DNA of 64,000 nucleotides from Planctomycetota bacterium (GTDB lineage: Bacteria > Planctomycetota > MHYJ01 > WSZJ01): positions 32,001 through 96,000 of the forward strand of contig JBBTCT010000034.1 in the NCBI GenBank assembly GCA_038060895.1, in the 5' to 3' direction. The position numbers were made by a program, and so were the translations under genes. Below are positions 18,577-29,009 of the stretch, piece by piece (the first letter of the stretch is position 1; the number at the start of each line of letters is the position of its first letter). The notes under the pieces are model-generated. The model was not told where the DNA came from and ran no database searches. It saw only the letters and a list, made by a program, of their open reading frames with translations.

Positions 18577-19587
18577 TTGAGCGAACGTCATCGCCTGCTC
18601 GAATCGATCGCGAAGATAACGTCGGACTACCGCACCGGCGAAGTCGCAGCTCCTTCTCCGGAGCACGTCGAGAGGTGGGTCGCTCAGTTCGATCCAAAGG
18701 TTCGCGATCCGCTCCTCGCCGAGATGGAGCACGTCCTGCGGCGCAGTTACCTGAGTCGCAAGACCGTCACGACCTTCCTGGGGAAGCAGGTGATGAACAA
18801 CAAGCTCGCAGGCGCTTCACCCTGCGCCTTCTGGAAAGCCGCGCACTTCCTCAGGATCCAGAAGAACGGTCACAGCCAGGAGGAGATGCTCGACCTGTTC
18901 GCCGACTGCCTGAAGTCTCAGTGCAGCATCGACCTGGCTGACTGCGGCAGCGCGGAAGGAGCCTACATCTACCTCGATGACGCGTCGTTCAGCGGCAGCA
19001 GGATGGGCAGCGACCTCGAAGAGTGGATCCTCACGAAGGCTCCCAAGAAGGCAACCGTCCACGTTCTCGTCATCGCGGTCCACGCCCTCGGCGAGTTTCT
19101 GGCAACCAACCGCCTGGACAAGGCCGCGGATCGAGCCGGGAAGAAGATCGACTTCCACATCTGGCGGGCGATCACGATCGAGAATCGCAAAGCGTACCGC
19201 CACTCGTCCGAGGTTCTGTGGCCGGTCAGTCTGCCGAGGAACAAGGACGTGCAGGCCTACGCCGACGAGGAGGACCGGTATCCGTTCGAACCAAGGACTG
19301 CCATTCCCACGAGCACGCAGACCTTCTTCACGTCCGAAGCTGGACGCCAACTCCTCGAGCGAGAAATGCTCCTGGCAGGTGTACGAATCCGCTCGATGAG
19401 CGCGAACCCAAAGAAGATCATGAGGCCGTTGGGCTTCAGTGCCTTCGGGTTGGGCTTTGGGTCGATGATCGTGACGTTCCGAAACTGTCCGAACAACTGT
19501 CCGCTCGCCTTGTGGTGGGGTGACCCGGACTCGACTTCGGAAGGACCGCTGAACTGGTATCCGTTGTTTCCCCGCAAAACCTACTAG
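18577..19587 (+). CDS. Phosphoribosyltransferase-fold conflict protein (PRTase-CE/ShosT-like)
   Basis: PRPP-loop-like YIYLDDASFSGS; C-terminal FRNCPNNCPLALWW...WYPLFPR; TTG start after GGAGAG. Confidence 0.75.
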   Translation: MSERHRLLESIAKITSDYRTGEVAAPSPEHVERWVAQFDPKVRDPLLAEMEHVLRRSYLSRKTVTTFLGKQVMNNKLAGASPCAFWKAAHFLRIQKNGHSQEEMLDLFADCLKSQCSIDLADCGSAEGAYIYLDDASFSGSRMGSDLEEWILTKAPKKATVHVLVIAVHALGEFLATNRLDKAADRAGKKIDFHIWRAITIENRKAYRHSSEVLWPVSLPRNKDVQAYADEEDRYPFEPRTAIPTSTQTFFTSEAGRQLLEREMLLAGVRIRSMSANPKKIMRPLGFSAFGLGFGSMIVTFRNCPNNCPLALWWGDPDSTSEGPLNWYPLFPRKTY

Positions 19588-20241: not shown

Positions 20242-20394
20242 CGGGCTCAGCTTGAATGCACATTCCTCCACGACGACTCCATCACAGAGCGGCGAACTTC
20301 GAGCTCGATCGCTGTGGGGCGCGTCGAGCCGCTCGGATCAACCAGCTCGGCGACCACGAAAGCAATATTCGAATTCAAGGAGGCTCAATTCACG

Positions 20395-20988
20395 ATGGGC
20401 AACAAGACAGACTTTCACCGAAAGTTGGATGACTTGTGGAGCCGTCGAACCGAAGAGCTTCGGGCCCTTGTAGGAATTCGTCATCGCGGTCCAAGACTGA
20501 AATTTAACAAGAAGATCCGCGAACAGCGGATCCGGGAGCTCACGGAGCTGGCGACAGAGATTCTGAGGGAAGACGCTAAGGACGAAATCGAAGCTCGCCT
20601 AAACCAAACCGGACGGAGACACATTCGTGGGTACGGCATTCAGGACAGATTCGATCGCATCTGGGACTGGGCCGAATCCTGGATTCGCGGGCCGATCGTG
20701 TATCTCTTCTGGAAAGGAAGTCGCTGCCTCTACGTGGGAAGGGGAAATTCCTGGAAGCGGCTGGGAAGCTACGAAAAGTCGTGGTACCTGAAGGAGGCTG
20801 ACTTGCTGGAAGTCCTTTGCGTCGCAGGAAAGAGCAATCTTCCGTTGGTGGAGTGCCTTTGTGTCCATCTCTATGAACCTCGGGACAACAAGTCGAAGCC
20901 GGCCAACAAAAAGTGGGGCAAGTCCTGCCCAATCTGTCTCACTCACGACCGAATCCAGGACGAATTGAGGTTCGTCTTTGCAACCTGA
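20395..20988 (+). CDS. Divergent GIY-YIG-like nuclease
   Basis: AAGGAGG RBS; PIVYLFW...LYVGRG...KRL...VE...EPRDN. Confidence 0.6.
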   Translation: MGNKTDFHRKLDDLWSRRTEELRALVGIRHRGPRLKFNKKIREQRIRELTELATEILREDAKDEIEARLNQTGRRHIRGYGIQDRFDRIWDWAESWIRGPIVYLFWKGSRCLYVGRGNSWKRLGSYEKSWYLKEADLLEVLCVAGKSNLPLVECLCVHLYEPRDNKSKPANKKWGKSCPICLTHDRIQDELRFVFAT

Positions 20989-21014
20989 GAGTTCGTTGCC
21001 CTCCCCACACCTCC

Positions 21015-21180
21015 CTACTCCATGTCCTCCGCCTCCACGATCTCCGTCCTCGGCTTGCCCGTAGCCTTGCTCTTCATGTTGAGCACCTCGAACGTGTACT
21101 TCCCTTTGTGGGCGACGTCGGCGGGGAAGGTCGCCTGGCCGACGCCGTTGAGCGCCTTCAGCACGCGGTTCGTTCGACTC
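21015..21180 (-). pseudogene. Orphan 3' fragment of an unknown gene
   Basis: Coding-like RVLKALNGVGQATFPADVAHKGKYTFEVLNMKSKATGKPRTEIVEAEDME-stop with no credible start. Confidence 0.4.
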
Positions 21181-21214
21181 GCCCGCTTCCACGGCGAGCG
21201 GCCCGCAGTTCCCA

Positions 21215-21573
21215 CTCGTGAAACAGCCCGCACGATCCGTTTCCCGCCGCGATACCATTCGCAACGCGTTCGATCCGGCGTCCCAGTGAGGCGGCATGCT
21301 GCGGAAGACATGGCTGGCACTTCTCCTCTGCGCGGCCCCGCTCGCGGCCGAGGAGGGCTACGACGCGGGCGACAGCTGCCCCGACTTTGAGCTCTTCAAC
21401 ACGGACGGCCGCGCCGTCCGGCTCTCCGAATTCCGCGGGCGCGTCGTGGTGCTTCACCTGTTCGCCACGTGGTGAGGCGGCTGCCAGGCGGGCGGGGCGC
21501 CGATCGCGCAGTTCGCGCGGGAGATGAAGGACGACGGGCGGGTGGCGTTCGTCGAGATCGCGGGCGGGGAGAC
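21215..21573 (+). repeat. 359-bp direct repeat, copy 1 (upstream region plus 5' part of a TlpA-like redoxin gene)
   Basis: Near-identical to 29089-29447. Confidence 0.95.
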
Positions 21574-21652
21574 GCCCGAAGCCGCGGCGGAGCGCGAGAG
21601 TTCGACTATGATCACGGGCGATGGAAGTCTCCCTCCACGCGAACATGTGTGA
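21296..21652 (+). pseudogene. Truncated TlpA/redoxin family putative selenoprotein (W-U-G-G-C), copy 1
   Basis: Signal peptide, GDSCPDFELFNTDGRAVRLSEFRGRVVVLHLFATW-TGA(21473)-GGC; redoxin-like sequence lost after about 21590. Confidence 0.75.
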
Positions 21653-22091
21653 CGCGACAACAAGTCGAATCGCTCACGCTCTTCGCGCTCCCTTCAAGTC
21701 TCTTGGCAGCGCCCTGAGCAAGGATTACGGCGGGACGATGAAGAATCTGTGGATTGACCTGGAATTGATCGAGTCGCGCGCGAAGCCTCGGCCCTTTCGC
21801 TTCCAGAAGAAGGTGGGTGGAAGTTCACCGGACAAGCTCACGGGATTACCCAGAGAAGTTCATGAGAATGTCGGCCACTACAGCGTCTGCCCTGACTTCG
21901 AGAAGCTTCGCCAACTCCCGCAAGACTCGGTTGTCAGCTACGTGCTGGGTGTCGTCTACGTCTCGACTTCGGTACTCCTCGACAAAAGGAAAAAGCTCGG
22001 AGGACTCGATGCCGAGCGATTCCGCGCCGATTTCGTCACGGCCTGCGAACAGCTCGGCCATGCGGTGATCGCGGAGAACGGGCCGGGCTAG
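21621..22091 (+). CDS. Hypothetical protein (possible immunity-type protein)
   Basis: 156 aa ORF; TATGAT 8 nt before ATG. Confidence 0.6.
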   Translation: MEVSLHANMCDATTSRIAHALRAPFKSLGSALSKDYGGTMKNLWIDLELIESRAKPRPFRFQKKVGGSSPDKLTGLPREVHENVGHYSVCPDFEKLRQLPQDSVVSYVLGVVYVSTSVLLDKRKKLGGLDAERFRADFVTACEQLGHAVIAENGPG

Positions 22092-23398: not shown

Positions 23399-25648
23399 AT
23401 GCCGCTTTGTCCACGTCTGCTGACGGGCGTCCTGGCCTCGAGCCTCTTTCTGCTGAGTCCTGTCCATGCCGAAGATGCCTCGCCCAAGGTGACGGATTGG
23501 CGTGGGGGCGCGAAACTCGCGGGGCTGACCGACGCCGAGGTCGAGCGGCTCGCGAAACAGAAAATCCTGATCGCCGGCCCTCAGCGACTGCAGGTTTTTC
23601 AGGTCTACGAAGGCTCGAGGGTGCCTACCTTCGTCACGTCCGATGCGGTGCTCAACGCCTTCCACGTCCTCTTTGAAGAGAGCGTGGTCCGCCTTGAGAG
23701 GTCGCGTTCAGAACGGCTTGCGGGCGTGCTGCGTCCGATCTGGGACGGCATCCCGGAGGCGATCAAGCGATTCGAATGGCCGGAAGACGAGAAGCAGGAT
23801 GCCGTTCGTCGCGCGCAGATCACGATCGGCGTGGGGTTGCGCCTGCTCGGCGCGGAATCGCCGGGAGCCTCGAAGGATGTCCTGGATGCGATCGAGGCCG
23901 AAATCGGGCGCGTCCTCGCGGGGAAAGAGCGCCTGCGACCGGAATGGCTCGGCCCGCATGACGACGGATTTCCGTTCATCGACTACAGCCGGTTCGAGCC
24001 GCGCGGTTTCTACACGCGCGACGAACGCCTCCGGGCCTACTTCCGCGCGTCCGCCTGGCTGCAGGCCGTTCCCTTCAGGACCGGACAGGACCGCGAGATA
24101 CTGACAGCGGCGGTGATTTCCGAAGCGATCGGAGACCGCGCTGGACGGTGGGAGTACGAGCACTTCAATCGCGTCCGGACATCACTCCTCGGCCGCTACG
24201 GGGACCTGACGATCCCTTTCCGCGCGTTTTCAGACCGGCCGTGGTCGAAGGAGGACCTCAGGACTTATCGCAAGGATTGCGAGGAATCCTGGAAAAGCGC
24301 AAATCCACAGAAGGACGACCCTGTGGACGCCCTGGCTCCGCGCTTTCACGGGTTTGAGCCATGCCTGCGGGTCTTCCCCGCCGCCTTGTTGCCGGAGGGA
24401 CGGCTCTTCGATCTCTGGTGCGACCCGCGCGTGCAACCCACCAGGGAGCCGTCGGGATTGTTCGTCGCGGCCGCGCTGGGCGGAGACTTCGCGCGCGCGG
24501 AGGCCCTGGCGCATCGAACGCCGGGCGAAGCGGAGGAACTGGCCCGAGTCATTGACGCCTGCCGGTCCCTTCCGAGTTGCGGCGGCCTCTACGGCGACTA
24601 TCTGCATTGCCTCGAAGCGCTTCTCGACGAAGCCGAGCCCGATGCTCCGGCATTCGTGTCGTCAGACCCATGGAAGCGCAAGAGCACGAATGCAGCCCTG
24701 GCGGGCTGGGCGCAAGCCCGGCACACATGGGTTCTGCAGGCCCGTGAAGACGTCATGTGGGGCGGAAAGGAAGACACGCTGGCCGGGTTCGTCGAACCTG
24801 ACCCTGAGTTCTTCTCGAGGCTGGCCGAACTCATCGAGAGAAGCTCGACGCTTCTGGAGAAGGAGGGTGCCTTCGATGAAAGCCTGTCACGGCAGGAATT
24901 CCTGTGGCTCGCGAAGGATCTCGCCGAATCGCTTCGCGGCGGTGGCAGCCCGCGAGCCTGGACGGAGATCGAGGGGATGGTGATGTATGGTCGAAAGTCC
25001 GGGATTGTGGACTGGTTCTCCTGTCTGCGATCGGGCGAGGAGTTCGCGGGGATTCCGAGCCAGCAAGAGCTCACCCCTGAGGAGCTTCCGAAGGTCCTGA
25101 AGGCGGTGGAACGGGACATCAAGCTCCTTGAAGGAAGCGATCCCCTGCCTCGCTTGCTCGCTTCGTGCGTTTCGGACATCACGCCGCCGCTTCAGCTCAC
25201 CTGGCGAAGGCTCGAAAGGCTCTGCAGGCGTCTCGAAGCGATGTCCCAGAAGCAGCTGAGGGGCAGGCCCTGGGACCAGGAAGAGCGGCATTTCCTGTTG
25301 AACTTCGGGCCCGAGTTGGGCGCGGCGATGCTCTACGAAGGAAATTCCTACGAACACCCCAACGACGACGCGCCTCGCGTGTCGTCGGTGTACGCTGACC
25401 TGCGTGACCCGCGGGCGCCTCGTTACTTCCAGGCGGGAATCGCACGGCCTCGTGCGCTGTACGTCCTCTACCCGTGGAACGGTGAGGAGTGTCTCTGCCG
25501 CGGCGTGGTCGTGCCCTACCGCGAATTCGTCGGCCCGAATCGCCTCGGCGACGCGGAGTGGCGGGCGCTGCTGGACTCGAAGGATGCGCCTCCGTCCCCG
25601 TCGTGGATGGAGCCCGTGGTTTCGCCAGAACCGCCCGGGAAGAAATAG
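23399..25648 (+). CDS. DUF3160 family secreted protein
   Basis: FVTSDAVLNAFHVLF, DYSRFEPRGFYT, ALAGWAQARHTWVL, GFVEPDPEFF, RGVVVPYREF. Confidence 0.85.
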   Translation: MPLCPRLLTGVLASSLFLLSPVHAEDASPKVTDWRGGAKLAGLTDAEVERLAKQKILIAGPQRLQVFQVYEGSRVPTFVTSDAVLNAFHVLFEESVVRLERSRSERLAGVLRPIWDGIPEAIKRFEWPEDEKQDAVRRAQITIGVGLRLLGAESPGASKDVLDAIEAEIGRVLAGKERLRPEWLGPHDDGFPFIDYSRFEPRGFYTRDERLRAYFRASAWLQAVPFRTGQDREILTAAVISEAIGDRAGRWEYEHFNRVRTSLLGRYGDLTIPFRAFSDRPWSKEDLRTYRKDCEESWKSANPQKDDPVDALAPRFHGFEPCLRVFPAALLPEGRLFDLWCDPRVQPTREPSGLFVAAALGGDFARAEALAHRTPGEAEELARVIDACRSLPSCGGLYGDYLHCLEALLDEAEPDAPAFVSSDPWKRKSTNAALAGWAQARHTWVLQAREDVMWGGKEDTLAGFVEPDPEFFSRLAELIERSSTLLEKEGAFDESLSRQEFLWLAKDLAESLRGGGSPRAWTEIEGMVMYGRKSGIVDWFSCLRSGEEFAGIPSQQELTPEELPKVLKAVERDIKLLEGSDPLPRLLASCVSDITPPLQLTWRRLERLCRRLEAMSQKQLRGRPWDQEERHFLLNFGPELGAAMLYEGNSYEHPNDDAPRVSSVYADLRDPRAPRYFQAGIARPRALYVLYPWNGEECLCRGVVVPYREFVGPNRLGDAEWRALLDSKDAPPSPSWMEPVVSPEPPGKK

Positions 25649-25849
25649 CTCGAGTCGCAAGGTCTTGTTCGTGGTCCTGCGCGTCCTGTCCAGATGCCCG
25701 CCTCCCGTGCCCCGTTGCACGGGCTCGCCGTTGCGGCGGAAACGGCGGCTTCTAAGTTCGTAACTGTAAGGGCGGTCAAGATCGGCGAGCGATCGTGTAC
25801 CGTAACGTCGGCTCGTTGACAGGTGCATCCCGTGCTTCGGAGGAAGTCC

Positions 25850-27403
25850 ATGAACGCGCTTCGCCGGCTCACACTCGCCTCCGCCGTCGCCGTCGCTGTG
25901 CTCGCGCCGCTTCCCACATCCGCCTGCCTGGGCGAGTACCGGAGCCTGGACTGGATGGTGGGGCACGCCACGCTGATCTTCGTTGGGACGGTGGAATCGG
26001 TAGAGAAGGCGCCTTCGGGGCGGGAAGACGCGCGGAGAGGCCCCTCGCAGGACGGGCCGACAGTGGCGACGGTGAAAATCGTGCGCGTGCTGCATGGCAC
26101 GGCGCCGGACGCGACGATCCGGCTCCGGTCCGGGCCGGTCGCGTCCTGAGCACCGGAGGCCATCTACTTCGGTTTCGAAGTCGGTCAGACTTCGATTTTC
26201 ATCCTGATCGGTTCGACGTCCAGCGGTACGGCAACGCTGTCGCGGGGCGCCTGCGTGCAGGGCTTGGAAGACCTGGAGGCCTTGCGGTCGCGCATCGTCC
26301 GCGCAAAGGCGTGGCGGGCGGAGCACCTCGAGCAACTGCGAAGGACGGACCCGAAGCTTTTCGAGGCGGCCGAGGCGCTCAACGCAGAGATGAGGAAGGC
26401 AGTAGAAACGGCGCCCTTTCCCGATCCCAGGGATGATGGCTCGTCGTTCGAGGCTACTCATGAGGCGGTCGAAAAGCTGACGAAGCGCCTCGCCGAAATT
26501 GAACCGCAGGTCGCGTTCGAGGCCCTGGCGATGGATTGGCTGGACACGACGAAAGGGCACTGGTCCGGTGACGAATACAGTGTTTGGGGAAATGCGGTCA
26601 GGGATGCTTTCCGCGACCGCGAGAAAGAAGTAGCGACACTTCAGAAGAACGAAGCCGAACGCCTGCTTCTCCGTGCCGGCCTCTCGAAGACCCAGGTCGC
26701 GGAGTACATCGCGGCGGTGGACAGCGGCTTCGGAAGATCCCCCGAGTTCCCCCTTGATCCGCCGAACGGCTACCGACTCGACAAACTTTCGCCGGAGATC
26801 GCGACCACGGACTTCATCCTCCGCTGCGAAACGTACGACCGCGGGGCGATCTACTTGCTCTACGGCATGTGGGGAGAACGGCTTGCCAAGATCCTCCCCG
26901 CGCGCGTCCAGGACCGGATCCCGTCCATGCTCTCCAGCCCGGACGGCGACGCGTGGGTCGCGGCGCGTCTGATCGAGGAAGTGAAGGGATTCCACTTCGT
27001 CGATGAGGTCCTCCGTCGCCAGGTGGCCGGGGAGAGGCCGGGCGTGTTCCTCTTCCTCAACGCGGACGACAAGAACTGGAAAACCGATGTCCTCAACGAG
27101 ATGTTCAAGCGGGCAAGAACCGGGTACTCCCTCTGGGGAAGATCCCGGCTCTGGGACTCGTTGGGGACAAGCGGGATCGATGACCCCGTGTGCATCGGCG
27201 CTGCAATTGCGGATCTCGAGAACGAAGAAAAGGCCGGGAAGCGCACGGAGGATGAGGAACGCTGGGCCTCCGGGTTTCGCGATTCGCTTCGGCGTTATCT
27301 CACCTTCGCCCAGTCCGCCCGAAGCGCACAGGGGGACGCAAAGAAGTCCGCCGCGGAGTGGAATGAGTGGTTCGAGAAGAATCCGGCTCCGGCGAAAAAG
27401 TGA
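25850..27403 (+). CDS. Secreted protein with N-terminal TIMP/NTR-like OB domain and one in-frame TGA (codon 100; putative selenocysteine)
   Basis: GGAGG RBS; ORFs 25823-26149 and 26255-27403 share a frame with only TGA 26147-26149 between them; AC...IFVGTV...VRVLHG...AS-U-...FEVGQ...AC pattern. Confidence 0.65.
26150..26186 (+). promoter_or_regulatory. Candidate bacterial SECIS hairpin
   Basis: ACTTCG-GTTT-CGAAGT perfect 6-bp stem with GU-starting loop 22 nt after the TGA; outer GGCC/GGTC pairing. Confidence 0.5.
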
Positions 27404-27486
27404 TCGGTCGGGGCGAGGCCAGGACGAAGCGCGGCGTCTTTCACAACCGAACCGTCATTGCTTCGGCTGGAAAACGAACCGCGGTT

Positions 27487-27638
27487 GGCTTCACCGCCGA
27501 CATGGACTACGAGGGCCGGTCGCTCAAGGCCCAGATGCGAAGCGCCAACCGCGTGAAAGCGCCGTGGGTCGTGATCATCGGCGGGGATGAGCCGTTCGAC
27601 TCGCTTCGCTCGCTCACTGTGGACTGGCGAAGGGGGTG
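27487..27638 (+). repeat. Degenerate hisS 3' fragment, copy 1, with 32-bp REP-like insert
   Basis: Aligns to hisS 10849-10968 plus insert 27592-27623. Confidence 0.95.
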
Positions 27639-27713: not shown

Positions 27714-29009
27714 ATGAAAACAATCGGCTTCCTATCCTGCGTCCTCGGCGTTGCCATGTCGCTCCCGGCATACGCCCAGGGTGCTCCCGTATCAATCCCG
27801 ATCCGCACAGGAGTGCTTGGCGCCACGGAGCTCGGCTACCAGGGATACGCCGATGGGATCGAGCATCCCATCGAGGGGCAGAGCTTCGAAGCCTATGGCC
27901 ACGAAATCACACTCGATCGCAACGGTGCTCAGCCGACCGTGACAGTCGCGGGCAAGGCCACGAAGATCGCACGATTTCCGTGGATTCTCAAGCTGGGCTC
28001 AGGTGGCGAGGCCCGCGCAATCGAGATCGTGAGCCACGGCGAACGCCTGATGTGGACCAGCCATTGGGGCGCGACGTTCCAGCTCGACCAGCAGCCGTTC
28101 GCCGTCATCGATGCGGACGGCGACGGCGTGCTCTGGGAAATCGGAGAGGACGCGATTATCGGTCCCGACAGCTCGACGGCGACCCGCTACACGGGTGGGG
28201 CGTGGACCACGAAAGGCGGCTGGACCCTCGCGCCCGATGGCCCCCGGCTCCGGGCCTCCGCGATCGCGCTGTCATGTCCCCCGGAAATGCACAAGGCCTG
28301 GTGCCGATTCAACGTCGAGCGCCAGGCCGCGGGTTGCCAACCGGTCGCCTGGGACGAGGAGCTCGCGCGCGGTTGCCGCGCCCACGTCGCCTACTTGGCG
28401 CGCAACGACGTCCGCGGTCACGACGAAGATCCCAGCAAGCCCGGGTTCACCGAGATAGGTCGGACCGCCGCGAAGCAGTCCGTCCTGGGGTATCAATACG
28501 CCGACCCGCTCGAGGCGATCATCGAGCAATTTCGCACTGCCTACCACCTCGAGAATGTCATGAAACCCGGGCTCTTGAGCTCGGCGATGGCGATCCAGGG
28601 CACTCACTTCGCCTGCAACACCGAGGGTGGTAAGTCGGAGTCCGTCCAATCGGGATCGGTCGCCTGGGTCTGGCCTGCTCACGGCCGCCGCGATGCGTTT
28701 CGCGTGTTCAACGCGGGTGGCGAACAACCGATGCCAGTGCCGGGCCACGAGAAGGATTACCAAATGACCTTGGGGCAGGTCGTGTGCGCCAAGGTGACCC
28801 CGGGCAAGTGGGATCTGGTCGTCGAGACCGCCGCGGGCCAGCGCATCGAGGGCGTGCTGACCTTCCCCGGAAAGGGCATCGCCGGCAAGCCGGACAACGA
28901 CGAATTGGTGATCCTGGCGCCAGCGGCCTCGCTTCCCGTCGGCATGCTCCGCGCCACCTTGTCGCGCGACGGGGCGATCGAACGCCGGTGGTGGTTCGCC
29001 ACGCGTTGA
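27714..29009 (+). CDS. Secreted CAP/SCP domain protein
   Basis: Signal peptide; FNVERQAAGCQPVAWDEELARGCRAHVAYL...GHDE...TAYHLENVM. Confidence 0.75.
   Translation: MKTIGFLSCVLGVAMSLPAYAQGAPVSIPIRTGVLGATELGYQGYADGIEHPIEGQSFEAYGHEITLDRNGAQPTVTVAGKATKIARFPWILKLGSGGEARAIEIVSHGERLMWTSHWGATFQLDQQPFAVIDADGDGVLWEIGEDAIIGPDSSTATRYTGGAWTTKGGWTLAPDGPRLRASAIALSCPPEMHKAWCRFNVERQAAGCQPVAWDEELARGCRAHVAYLARNDVRGHDEDPSKPGFTEIGRTAAKQSVLGYQYADPLEAIIEQFRTAYHLENVMKPGLLSSAMAIQGTHFACNTEGGKSESVQSGSVAWVWPAHGRRDAFRVFNAGGEQPMPVPGHEKDYQMTLGQVVCAKVTPGKWDLVVETAAGQRIEGVLTFPGKGIAGKPDNDELVILAPAASLPVGMLRATLSRDGAIERRWWFATR

Follow-up and report, generated by a model that had tools for sequence, protein, structure and literature searches.

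The window analyzed here is a 64,000-nucleotide stretch from a Planctomycetota bacterium (assembly GCA_038060895.1, contig JBBTCT010000034.1, positions 32,001 to 96,000), and the gene in question lies on its forward strand at window positions 25850-27403. Read directly from the sequence, these positions hold a single frame of 517 sense codons, in which codon 100 (26147-26149) is the sole in-frame TGA ahead of the terminator. The original prediction, made from the DNA and its translations, had described a 517-codon frame interrupted solely by the TGA at 26147, and this description is borne out. We propose that the locus is an intact gene for a secreted two-domain selenoprotein in which UGA100 is decoded as selenocysteine (Sec), a joint reading to which we assign a probability of roughly 0.8. 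Taken by itself, Sec decoding of UGA100 appears highly probable from sequence comparison. The features of the gene, including a candidate Sec insertion sequence (SECIS), are as follows:

25836-25849, + strand: ribosome-binding region GGAGGA, 5 nucleotides ahead of the ATG at 25850 (read from the sequence)
25850-25924, + strand: predicted signal peptide, residues 1 to 25, ending in T-S-A and followed by Cys26 (hydrophobic N terminus and family columns)
25925-26269, + strand: mature N-terminal domain, residues 26 to 140 with Cys26 first, modeled as a TIMP/NTR-like beta-barrel (AlphaFold2 model and structural matches)
26147-26149, + strand: UGA codon 100, very probably read as Sec (TGA/TGC/Cys column in homologs and spanning contigs)
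26166-26181, + strand: hairpin ACUUCG / GUUU / CGAAGU of the original prediction, probably not the functional element (folding energy and homolog comparison)
26175-26195, + strand: conserved SECIS-like hairpin with an 8-bp stem and the loop GGUCA (folding energy, RNAalifold, and the bacterial SECIS model)
26270-27400, + strand: C-terminal all-helical domain, residues 141 to 517, predicted to be HEAT/ARM-like (AlphaFold2 model and weak matches)
27401-27403, + strand: terminal stop codon, which is also TGA (sequence)

The interrupting codon is conserved across homologs. A six-frame search of 61 related genomes recovered homologs at six places in four genomes, five with exactly one TGA and one without. 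The same six places were the only strong matches when all 56 genomes of the class were searched, and in a 401-genome sample of the phylum, strong matches were confined to the window's own genome (G000) and to genomes G003 and G009, with G005 lying outside that sample. Compared with the window protein, the homologs show 24 to 47% identity along their whole length, about 500 residues. When aligned, all six homologous genes place their TGA or TGC in a single column inside the motif G-P-V-x-S-U/C, and the frame is open and conserved on both sides of the TGA in five genes from four genomes. G009 holds both forms, a Cys form at G009:C103:20802-21818 (L023) and a Sec form at G009:C574:267-1358 (L025); the Cys-form paralog has TGC at the Sec column and encodes 372 residues with a shorter C terminus. 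G005 carries two TGA-containing tandem paralogs (G005:C84:18823-20346 and 20386-21918; L021 and L024), which lie head to tail about 40 nucleotides apart and share 47% and 33% identity with the window protein.

To extend the family, a profile built from the six homologous proteins was searched against 1.84 billion protein representatives at E values up to 0.001, which returned 143 representatives, 68 of them at E values up to 1e-30. At the Sec column, 85 representatives have Cys, 13 have another residue, 11 end just before it, and 34 do not cover it; Cys is therefore the residue in 85 of the 98 representatives that have one there. Most of the 13 with another residue are low-scoring members. The 11 short proteins (78 to 106 residues) all have as their last residue the one preceding the Sec column; three of them derive from the N-terminal parts of the genes in G003 and G005, and eight or nine represent further lineages. 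Many of the 34 uncovered representatives are C-terminal pieces starting shortly past the column, and one of them, P0093, likewise ends just before it. The idea that the TGA takes the place of the middle Cys of the domain is thus supported by a column holding TGA in five genes, TGC in a sixth, and Cys in most of the wider family, and the possibility that the TGA is unique to this assembly, which would have told against that idea, did not hold: five genes in four genomes carry it. A tree of the N-terminal domain (104 rows, 74 columns, quick method) needs seven Sec changes, of which the well-supported branches force only one, and is too poorly resolved to distinguish a single from a repeated origin of Sec.

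Public protein records split these genes at the UGA. In the protein database, P0008 is the 382-residue downstream piece of the window gene and P0009 that of an 87%-identical relative, and NCBI holds a 406-residue C-terminal piece of a homolog from a Planctomycetota genome, named "hypothetical protein." A word-indexed protein search yielded nothing beyond the C-terminal piece of the window gene itself and a single 87%-identical one, and contig searches for relatives (genomes with a single protein, metagenomes with two small alignments) found no relative. With the genes divided in this way in public records, current selenoprotein annotation misses the family.

Such divided records are also what would be expected if the TGA were a nonsense mutation, leaving either a pseudogene or a 99-residue secreted fragment followed by a downstream open reading frame (ORF) from the GTG at 26255. 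The change from TGC to TGA takes one substitution, and gene callers have treated the gene as two (the P0008 and P0009 pieces and the 406-residue NCBI piece). Against this explanation stand the same-column TGA in five genes at 24 to 47% identity to the window protein, with the frame conserved on both sides, and the eleven database lineages that stop at exactly that column. Judging from the structural model, the 99-residue piece would comprise just three of the five strands of the barrel, and the downstream piece would be without a signal peptide. The original prediction had itself raised a nonsense mutation as a caveat; conservation of the column contradicts it, and we regard this explanation as very improbable.

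The genome assembly is 5.4 Mb in 47 contigs and 86.5% complete, and a sequencing or assembly error in a metagenome-assembled genome of this kind could also produce an in-frame TGA. Independent data speak against an error. Contigs of run X3 (DNA, from a different study) cover 26042-26260, including the TGA, with zero differences, and a contig of the RNA-library run X9 covers 26023-26385, again including the TGA and with zero differences. The original prediction had suggested a check of read support for the TGA, and the contigs of these two runs agree with it. Orthologs in other genomes share the TGA as well, and an error is the least probable of the explanations considered here, with next to no weight. 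The X9 contig is a hint of transcription only, as RNA libraries can contain DNA. In a further RNA-library run, X8, one contig has 26153-26364 fused to 26370-26468 from the other strand; the junction (26364/26468) is probably an assembly artifact of the contig. The sequencing runs in which the gene occurs are registered as metagenomes of groundwater or aquifers, and public sources give Planctomycetota names to close relatives of two of the genome's proteins.

The genome encodes a complete Sec system. The tRNA-Sec (selC) scores 71.7 bits against a cut-off of 47 and has the anticodon tca, and selA (541 bits), selB (310.7 bits), and selD (364 bits) lie above their curated cut-offs, so that all four genes named for checking at the outset were found. 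The selD gene has one in-frame TGA. This gene (G000:C2:48628-49548, minus strand, locus L018) is a selenoprotein gene too, with the motif S-C-A-G-U and a hairpin with a 6-bp stem and the loop GGC 17 nucleotides past its UGA. The three other genomes with TGA-type homologs (G003, G005, and G009) all have selA and tRNA-Sec above cut-off.

It must also be considered whether UGA in this gene could stand for an amino acid different from Sec, such as Trp, Cys, or Gly, through near-cognate decoding or a changed code. The terminator of the window gene is itself TGA, while three homologs (both G005 genes and the G003 gene) end in TAA or TAG near the same alignment column; UGA is thus taken to mean stop in this organism except in the context of codon 100. 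The complete Sec machinery, a hairpin past the codon that fits the SECIS model, and a Cys as the aligned residue elsewhere, which is the classical Sec/Cys signature, all stand against a non-Sec readthrough, and we consider it very unlikely.

The bacterial SECIS (bSECIS) model given in section 5 of a recent review (PMC13188914) describes a loop of 3 to 9 nucleotides on a stem of 4 to 16 bp, with a G in the first two loop positions, located 16 to 37 nucleotides past the UGA and with a minimum free energy (MFE) of −7.5 kcal/mol or lower. A stem of ACTTCG (26166-26171) and CGAAGT (26176-26181) with the loop GTTT, 22 nucleotides past the TGA, had been put forward in the original prediction as the SECIS-like element. 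This stem and loop exist, and the hairpin has a folding energy of −5.4 kcal/mol, weaker than the bSECIS limit. It is missing from the MFE folds, and the equivalent positions in three homologs give −0.9, +2.9, and −2.4 kcal/mol. We rejected it as the SECIS on these grounds: it is weak, it is not in the MFE folds, and it is not kept in the three homologs, where a neighboring hairpin is kept instead.

This neighbor, at 26175-26195, has an 8-bp stem and the loop GGUCA, which starts 33 nucleotides past the UGA, and a folding energy of −10.9 kcal/mol. The two hairpins are adjacent and mutually exclusive, as CGAAGT is shared and forms the 5' arm of the latter. Three homologs have an equivalent hairpin with the same loop and spacing at −11.0 to −13.9 kcal/mol, and all four hairpins agree with the bSECIS model of PMC13188914, section 5. 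RNAalifold on the four genes gives eight pairs: two differ on both sides, two have become G-U by a change on one side, and every pair is retained. One compensatory pair (A-U to G-C) arises from silent substitutions in one Glu and one Thr codon, and the other (G-C to C-G) accompanies Glu to Gln on one arm and Ser to Trp on the other. The stem and loop encode V-G-Q-T, which is invariant in the four hairpin genes, whereas in the wider family only G112 is conserved among the residues encoded there (89 of 95 members), a difference consistent with an additional RNA-level constraint. The two remaining genes conform to expectation: the Sec gene on contig 574 of G009 carries another hairpin (loop GUU, 20 nucleotides past the UGA, −8.3 kcal/mol), and the Cys-form gene has no significant fold at the site (z = 0.27). 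The hairpin at 26175-26195 is the likely SECIS signal for UGA100, as far as can be judged from sequence and predicted folding.

The N-terminal hydrophobic stretch appears in the structural model as a helix with a lower predicted local distance difference test score (pLDDT), in keeping with a signal peptide. Small residues at positions −3 and −1 mark sites cleaved by signal peptidase I. Of 96 family members, 71 have A and 13 have G immediately before column 26; small residues (A, S, G, T, or V) predominate at position −3, and charged or bulky ones are frequent at position −2. By the −3/−1 rule, this pattern fits signal peptidase I rather than a lipobox, and from the small-x-small site we therefore infer that Cys26 is the first residue of the mature protein.

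An AlphaFold2 model of the full-length protein, built with 61 family sequences, has two domains (pLDDT of 91.9; predicted template modeling score [pTM] of 0.89). Residues 26 to 140 modeled alone with 86 sequences form a five-stranded barrel (pLDDT of 93.6; pTM of 0.87). In an exhaustive structural comparison of this N-terminal domain model with 48,161 PDB representatives (VIA-align), ranks 1 to 10 were all NTR/TIMP domains, with Z scores of 7.0 to 9.1. The agrin NtA domain led with a Z score of 9.1 and a root mean square deviation of 2.3 over 91 residues, followed by the complement C4 C345C domain and N-TIMP-3 (both 8.6, the latter with model residues 2 to 115 on chain residues 2 to 102), C3b (8.1), the PCOLCE NTR domain (7.7), the meteorin NTR domain (7.2), and TIMP-1 (7.1). 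Generic OB folds start at rank 11, with a Z score of 6.7. Two Foldseek lists have the same families on top, with agrin NtA first in both. The model thus supports a TIMP/NTR fold for the domain at moderate strength.

Two Cys columns stand out in this domain. Cys at column 26, following an A-x-A/G-type site, occurs in 87 of 96 members, and no Cys column of the N-terminal domain other than 26 and 100 is conserved, the rest in residues 1 to 150 reaching at most 17%. The two also occur together: among 72 members with Cys100 that cover column 26, 69 have Cys26. A mature N-terminal Cys beside the barrel is a hallmark of TIMPs, in which the disulfide partner of Cys1 sits in the loop after the third strand (strand C). 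In the model, Sec100 lies seven residues past the third strand, in the following loop. Conserved polar columns lie beside Cys26 and Sec100, namely, Y30 (69 of 100 members), S32 (89 of 101), and S99 (83 of 109). The pattern AC...SC...C assigned to the domain in the original prediction therefore survives in its N-terminal AC and in its S-C/U, and its third Cys, C135, is not conserved. Because they are the only two conserved Cys columns of the domain, Cys26 and Sec100 may form a pair, which the sequence pattern makes rather probable. Sec is known to replace reactive cysteines that are redox active or ligate metals (PMC13188914, section 7; PMC1794560, abstract), and for this reason the pair would be expected to be chemically active.

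The C-terminal domain, about 370 residues, consists of helices throughout in the full-length model. A profile search matches it weakly to alphaRep HEAT-like repeats (E = 7e-4), and Foldseek places it with armadillo and alphaRep proteins at E values of 0.02 to 0.09 and low template modeling (TM) scores. The sole relevant Pfam match among 61 family members is a weak HEAT_2 match in one of them (E = 0.0076). Nearly invariant columns are W238, L273, P301, T319, T320, R352, and L484. Three proteins of the same phylum (L028 in G309, L031 in G081, and L033 in G243) likewise have a signal peptide, a small barrel with the pattern LIVxGxV ... RVLKG, and HEAT-like repeats, which suggests a broader superfamily of barrel-plus-solenoid proteins. 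They differ from the window family in that their matches are weak (E values of 7e-8 to 5e-5) and they have neither the N-terminal Cys nor the TGA; a similarly placed barrel Cys is present in L028 and missing from L031 and L033. A look-alike search with the Cys-form homolog P0011 gave HEAT-repeat and hypothetical clusters at 0.91 to 0.93 and structure rows with TM scores below 0.3, and it was not used as evidence.

Several observations weigh against parts of the proposed reading. The gene is patchily distributed and was not found in five of the seven other genomes of the genus searched (81 to 89% complete). The eight or nine further short proteins that end before the Sec column are known from protein records alone, and their stop codon may not be TGA. 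The conserved GGUCA hairpin is known in four sequences only and lies in the codons of the conserved residues V-G-Q-T, so that the protein could account for part of its conservation, and among the 1,513 UGA triplets of the window, 161 come with a hairpin that agrees with the SECIS model, which gives the chance level. The neighbors of the gene in the window (a DUF3160 protein and a CAP protein) are not repeated in the flanking ORFs of the two homolog loci examined (L021 and L022), and a Pfam scan of the window ORFs found no protease gene adjoining the selenoprotein gene. For the fold, Foldseek gave no match reaching an E value of 0.001, the best being about 1.3e-3 to 1.7e-3, and the note supplied with the structural aligner states that best Z scores of 7 to 8 are common for models without true relatives. 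Neither Pfam scans of the window protein (E up to 1) and of 61 family members (E up to 0.01) nor a profile search of PDB sequences (E up to 10) found a TIMP or NTR match. The third mature residue is not Cys, and the TIMP Cys-x-Cys motif and the further TIMP disulfides are absent. The TIMP/NTR-like domain of the original prediction is hence upheld at the level of the fold, by the ten best structural matches, and finds no match at the level of sequence, by which the domain is outside the TIMP and NTR families.

The last of these points bear on an alternative with close to an even chance of being right, in which Sec is real and the likeness to TIMP reflects a shared OB-type barrel only. The protein would then be an extracytoplasmic thiol/selenol oxidoreductase, a scavenger of peroxides or electrophiles, or a metal-binding protein, unrelated to proteases. 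The lack of a TIMP/NTR sequence match, of a Cys-x-Cys motif, and of a nearby protease gene agrees with this alternative, as do the conserved polar columns Y30, S32, and S99 next to Cys26 and Sec100 and the generic OB folds only about 2 Z units below the NTR domains. The NTR domains of agrin (NtA) and of complement (C345C) are not protease inhibitors, which counts in the same direction. Most known bacterial selenoproteins, moreover, have redox functions or coordinate a metal through Sec (PMC13188914, section 7). Standing against the alternative are the ten best structural matches, which are all NTR/TIMP domains with no other OB class among them. The mature N-terminal Cys by the barrel, the TIMP hallmark present in 87 of 96 members, also speaks against it.

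Under the proposed reading of an intact Sec-decoding gene, the genome's own SelA/SelB/SelC/SelD system would decode UGA100 as Sec, with the hairpin at 26175-26195 as the signal. Removal of the 25-residue signal peptide would leave a mature protein starting with Cys26, whose residues 26 to 140 would fold as a TIMP/NTR-type five-stranded barrel with Sec100 at the topological place of the partner of TIMP Cys1. Cys26 and Sec100 could then form a selenenylsulfide or thiol-selenol pair as the functional center, one that would be chemically active (redox or metal ligating) beyond any structural role. The use that we would favor is a TIMP-like ridge docking into the metal site of a partner, for example, the organism's own matrixin-type proteases, with the HEAT/ARM-like solenoid as a binding platform. 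The genome has four Peptidase_M10 (matrixin-type) matches above cut-off that are possible partners. Three of these matches are clustered at G000:C24:221579-224584 (L041 to L043), and the fourth is at C14:56328-56486 (L040); L041 contains a 250-residue protein with a signal peptide and the motif HExxHxxGxxH.

Among the possible functions, a free-standing redox function is doubtful, protease inhibition is unlikely and slightly more so, and metal binding is more improbable still. It is conceivable, with as little expectation as for metal binding, that the protein is a bacterial TIMP-type inhibitor with selenium in its ridge. The selenenylsulfide between the mature N-terminal Cys and Sec100 would open when reduced, and the selenolate or the freed N terminus would ligate the active-site zinc of matrixins that the organism itself secretes, as a redox-gated "selenocysteine switch."

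The gene neighborhood gives no functional hint. Upstream, at 23399-25648, the neighbor encodes a DUF3160 protein (Pfam, E = 4e-69), and downstream, at 27714-29009, the neighbor encodes a CAP/cysteine-rich secretory family protein (E = 1e-8). Directly past the gene, within 27440-27600, the peptide from about 27498 onward resembles by eye the C-terminal end of histidyl-tRNA synthetase, and this stretch may be a gene remnant. The 195-residue ORF at 27003-27590 in which it lies has no Pfam match. Elsewhere in the window, an ORF at 18577-19587 has a full-length Pfam match to PRTase-CE (PF24390, E = 5.5e-55). An Rfam scan of the whole window gave no family at gathering score.

Compared with TIMPs, the window protein shares a predicted five-stranded OB-type barrel, secretion, a probable Cys start of the mature chain, and a second Cys, here Sec, in the loop past the third strand, which in TIMPs is the site of the Cys1 partner. 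It differs in being bacterial, in having no detectable sequence similarity, no Cys-x-Cys, and no other TIMP disulfides, in carrying a 370-residue helical solenoid instead of the TIMP C-terminal domain, and in having selenium in place of sulfur. The NTR modules of agrin (NtA), C3/C4/C5 (C345C), PCOLCE, and meteorin are the best structural matches to the N-terminal domain model, but they are eukaryotic and extracellular, several lie at the C-terminal end of their proteins, and their cysteine pattern is another one. Like catalogued bacterial selenoproteins, the family has one UGA at a position where most homologs have Cys, a hairpin within 16 to 37 nucleotides whose loop starts with G, and a UGA form that occurs only in genomes with selABCD. 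Unlike in those proteins, the partner Cys is 74 residues away, and there is no UxxC or CxxU motif.

Table 1 of the 2026 review (PMC13188914) lists 119 bacterial selenoprotein families and subfamilies, and the description of BSepDB gives 111 families (PMC13326102). No entry of that table is described as TIMP, NTR, netrin-like, or HEAT. Its bare "hypothetical protein" entries have NCBIfam models, none of which matches the window protein, and an NCBIfam scan at E values up to 1, including the NF-numbered selenoprotein models, gave no match to it either; no Pfam model matched the protein. The words "TIMP," "netrin," and "HEAT" are absent from the main texts on deep-Sep (PMC12013277) and on BSepDB (PMC13326102, whose family list is in a supplement), and the listings of full-text literature searches held nothing relevant on a TIMP-like selenoprotein or a bacterial NTR/TIMP homolog. 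With no matching catalogue entry or NCBIfam model, we therefore regard the family as an uncatalogued selenoprotein family with an unusual fold and an unusual partner Cys. The claim of an undescribed exported selenoprotein with a non-thioredoxin fold holds for the family and not for the class of protein, as Table 1 of PMC13188914 already includes exported or non-thioredoxin selenoproteins such as a TonB-dependent receptor, an MtrB/PioB-type barrel, BtuF, and multiheme cytochromes.

New bacterial selenoprotein families are still reported regularly, and nearly all are thioredoxin-like or have a UxxC or CxxU motif. Here, selenium would sit in a secreted TIMP/NTR-like barrel, where its only conserved partner would be the first residue of the mature protein. 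The Sec form also gives a handle on an uncharacterized family of 143 database representatives, which are named only "hypothetical protein" where names were seen. Should the redox-gated inhibitor prove true, it would establish both the first protease inhibitor among selenoproteins and the first natural Sec at the TIMP disulfide position, and the inhibitory design of TIMP/NTR proteins would exist in bacteria. If the Cys26-Sec100 pair is reactive, it would point to a new extracytoplasmic selenium chemistry.

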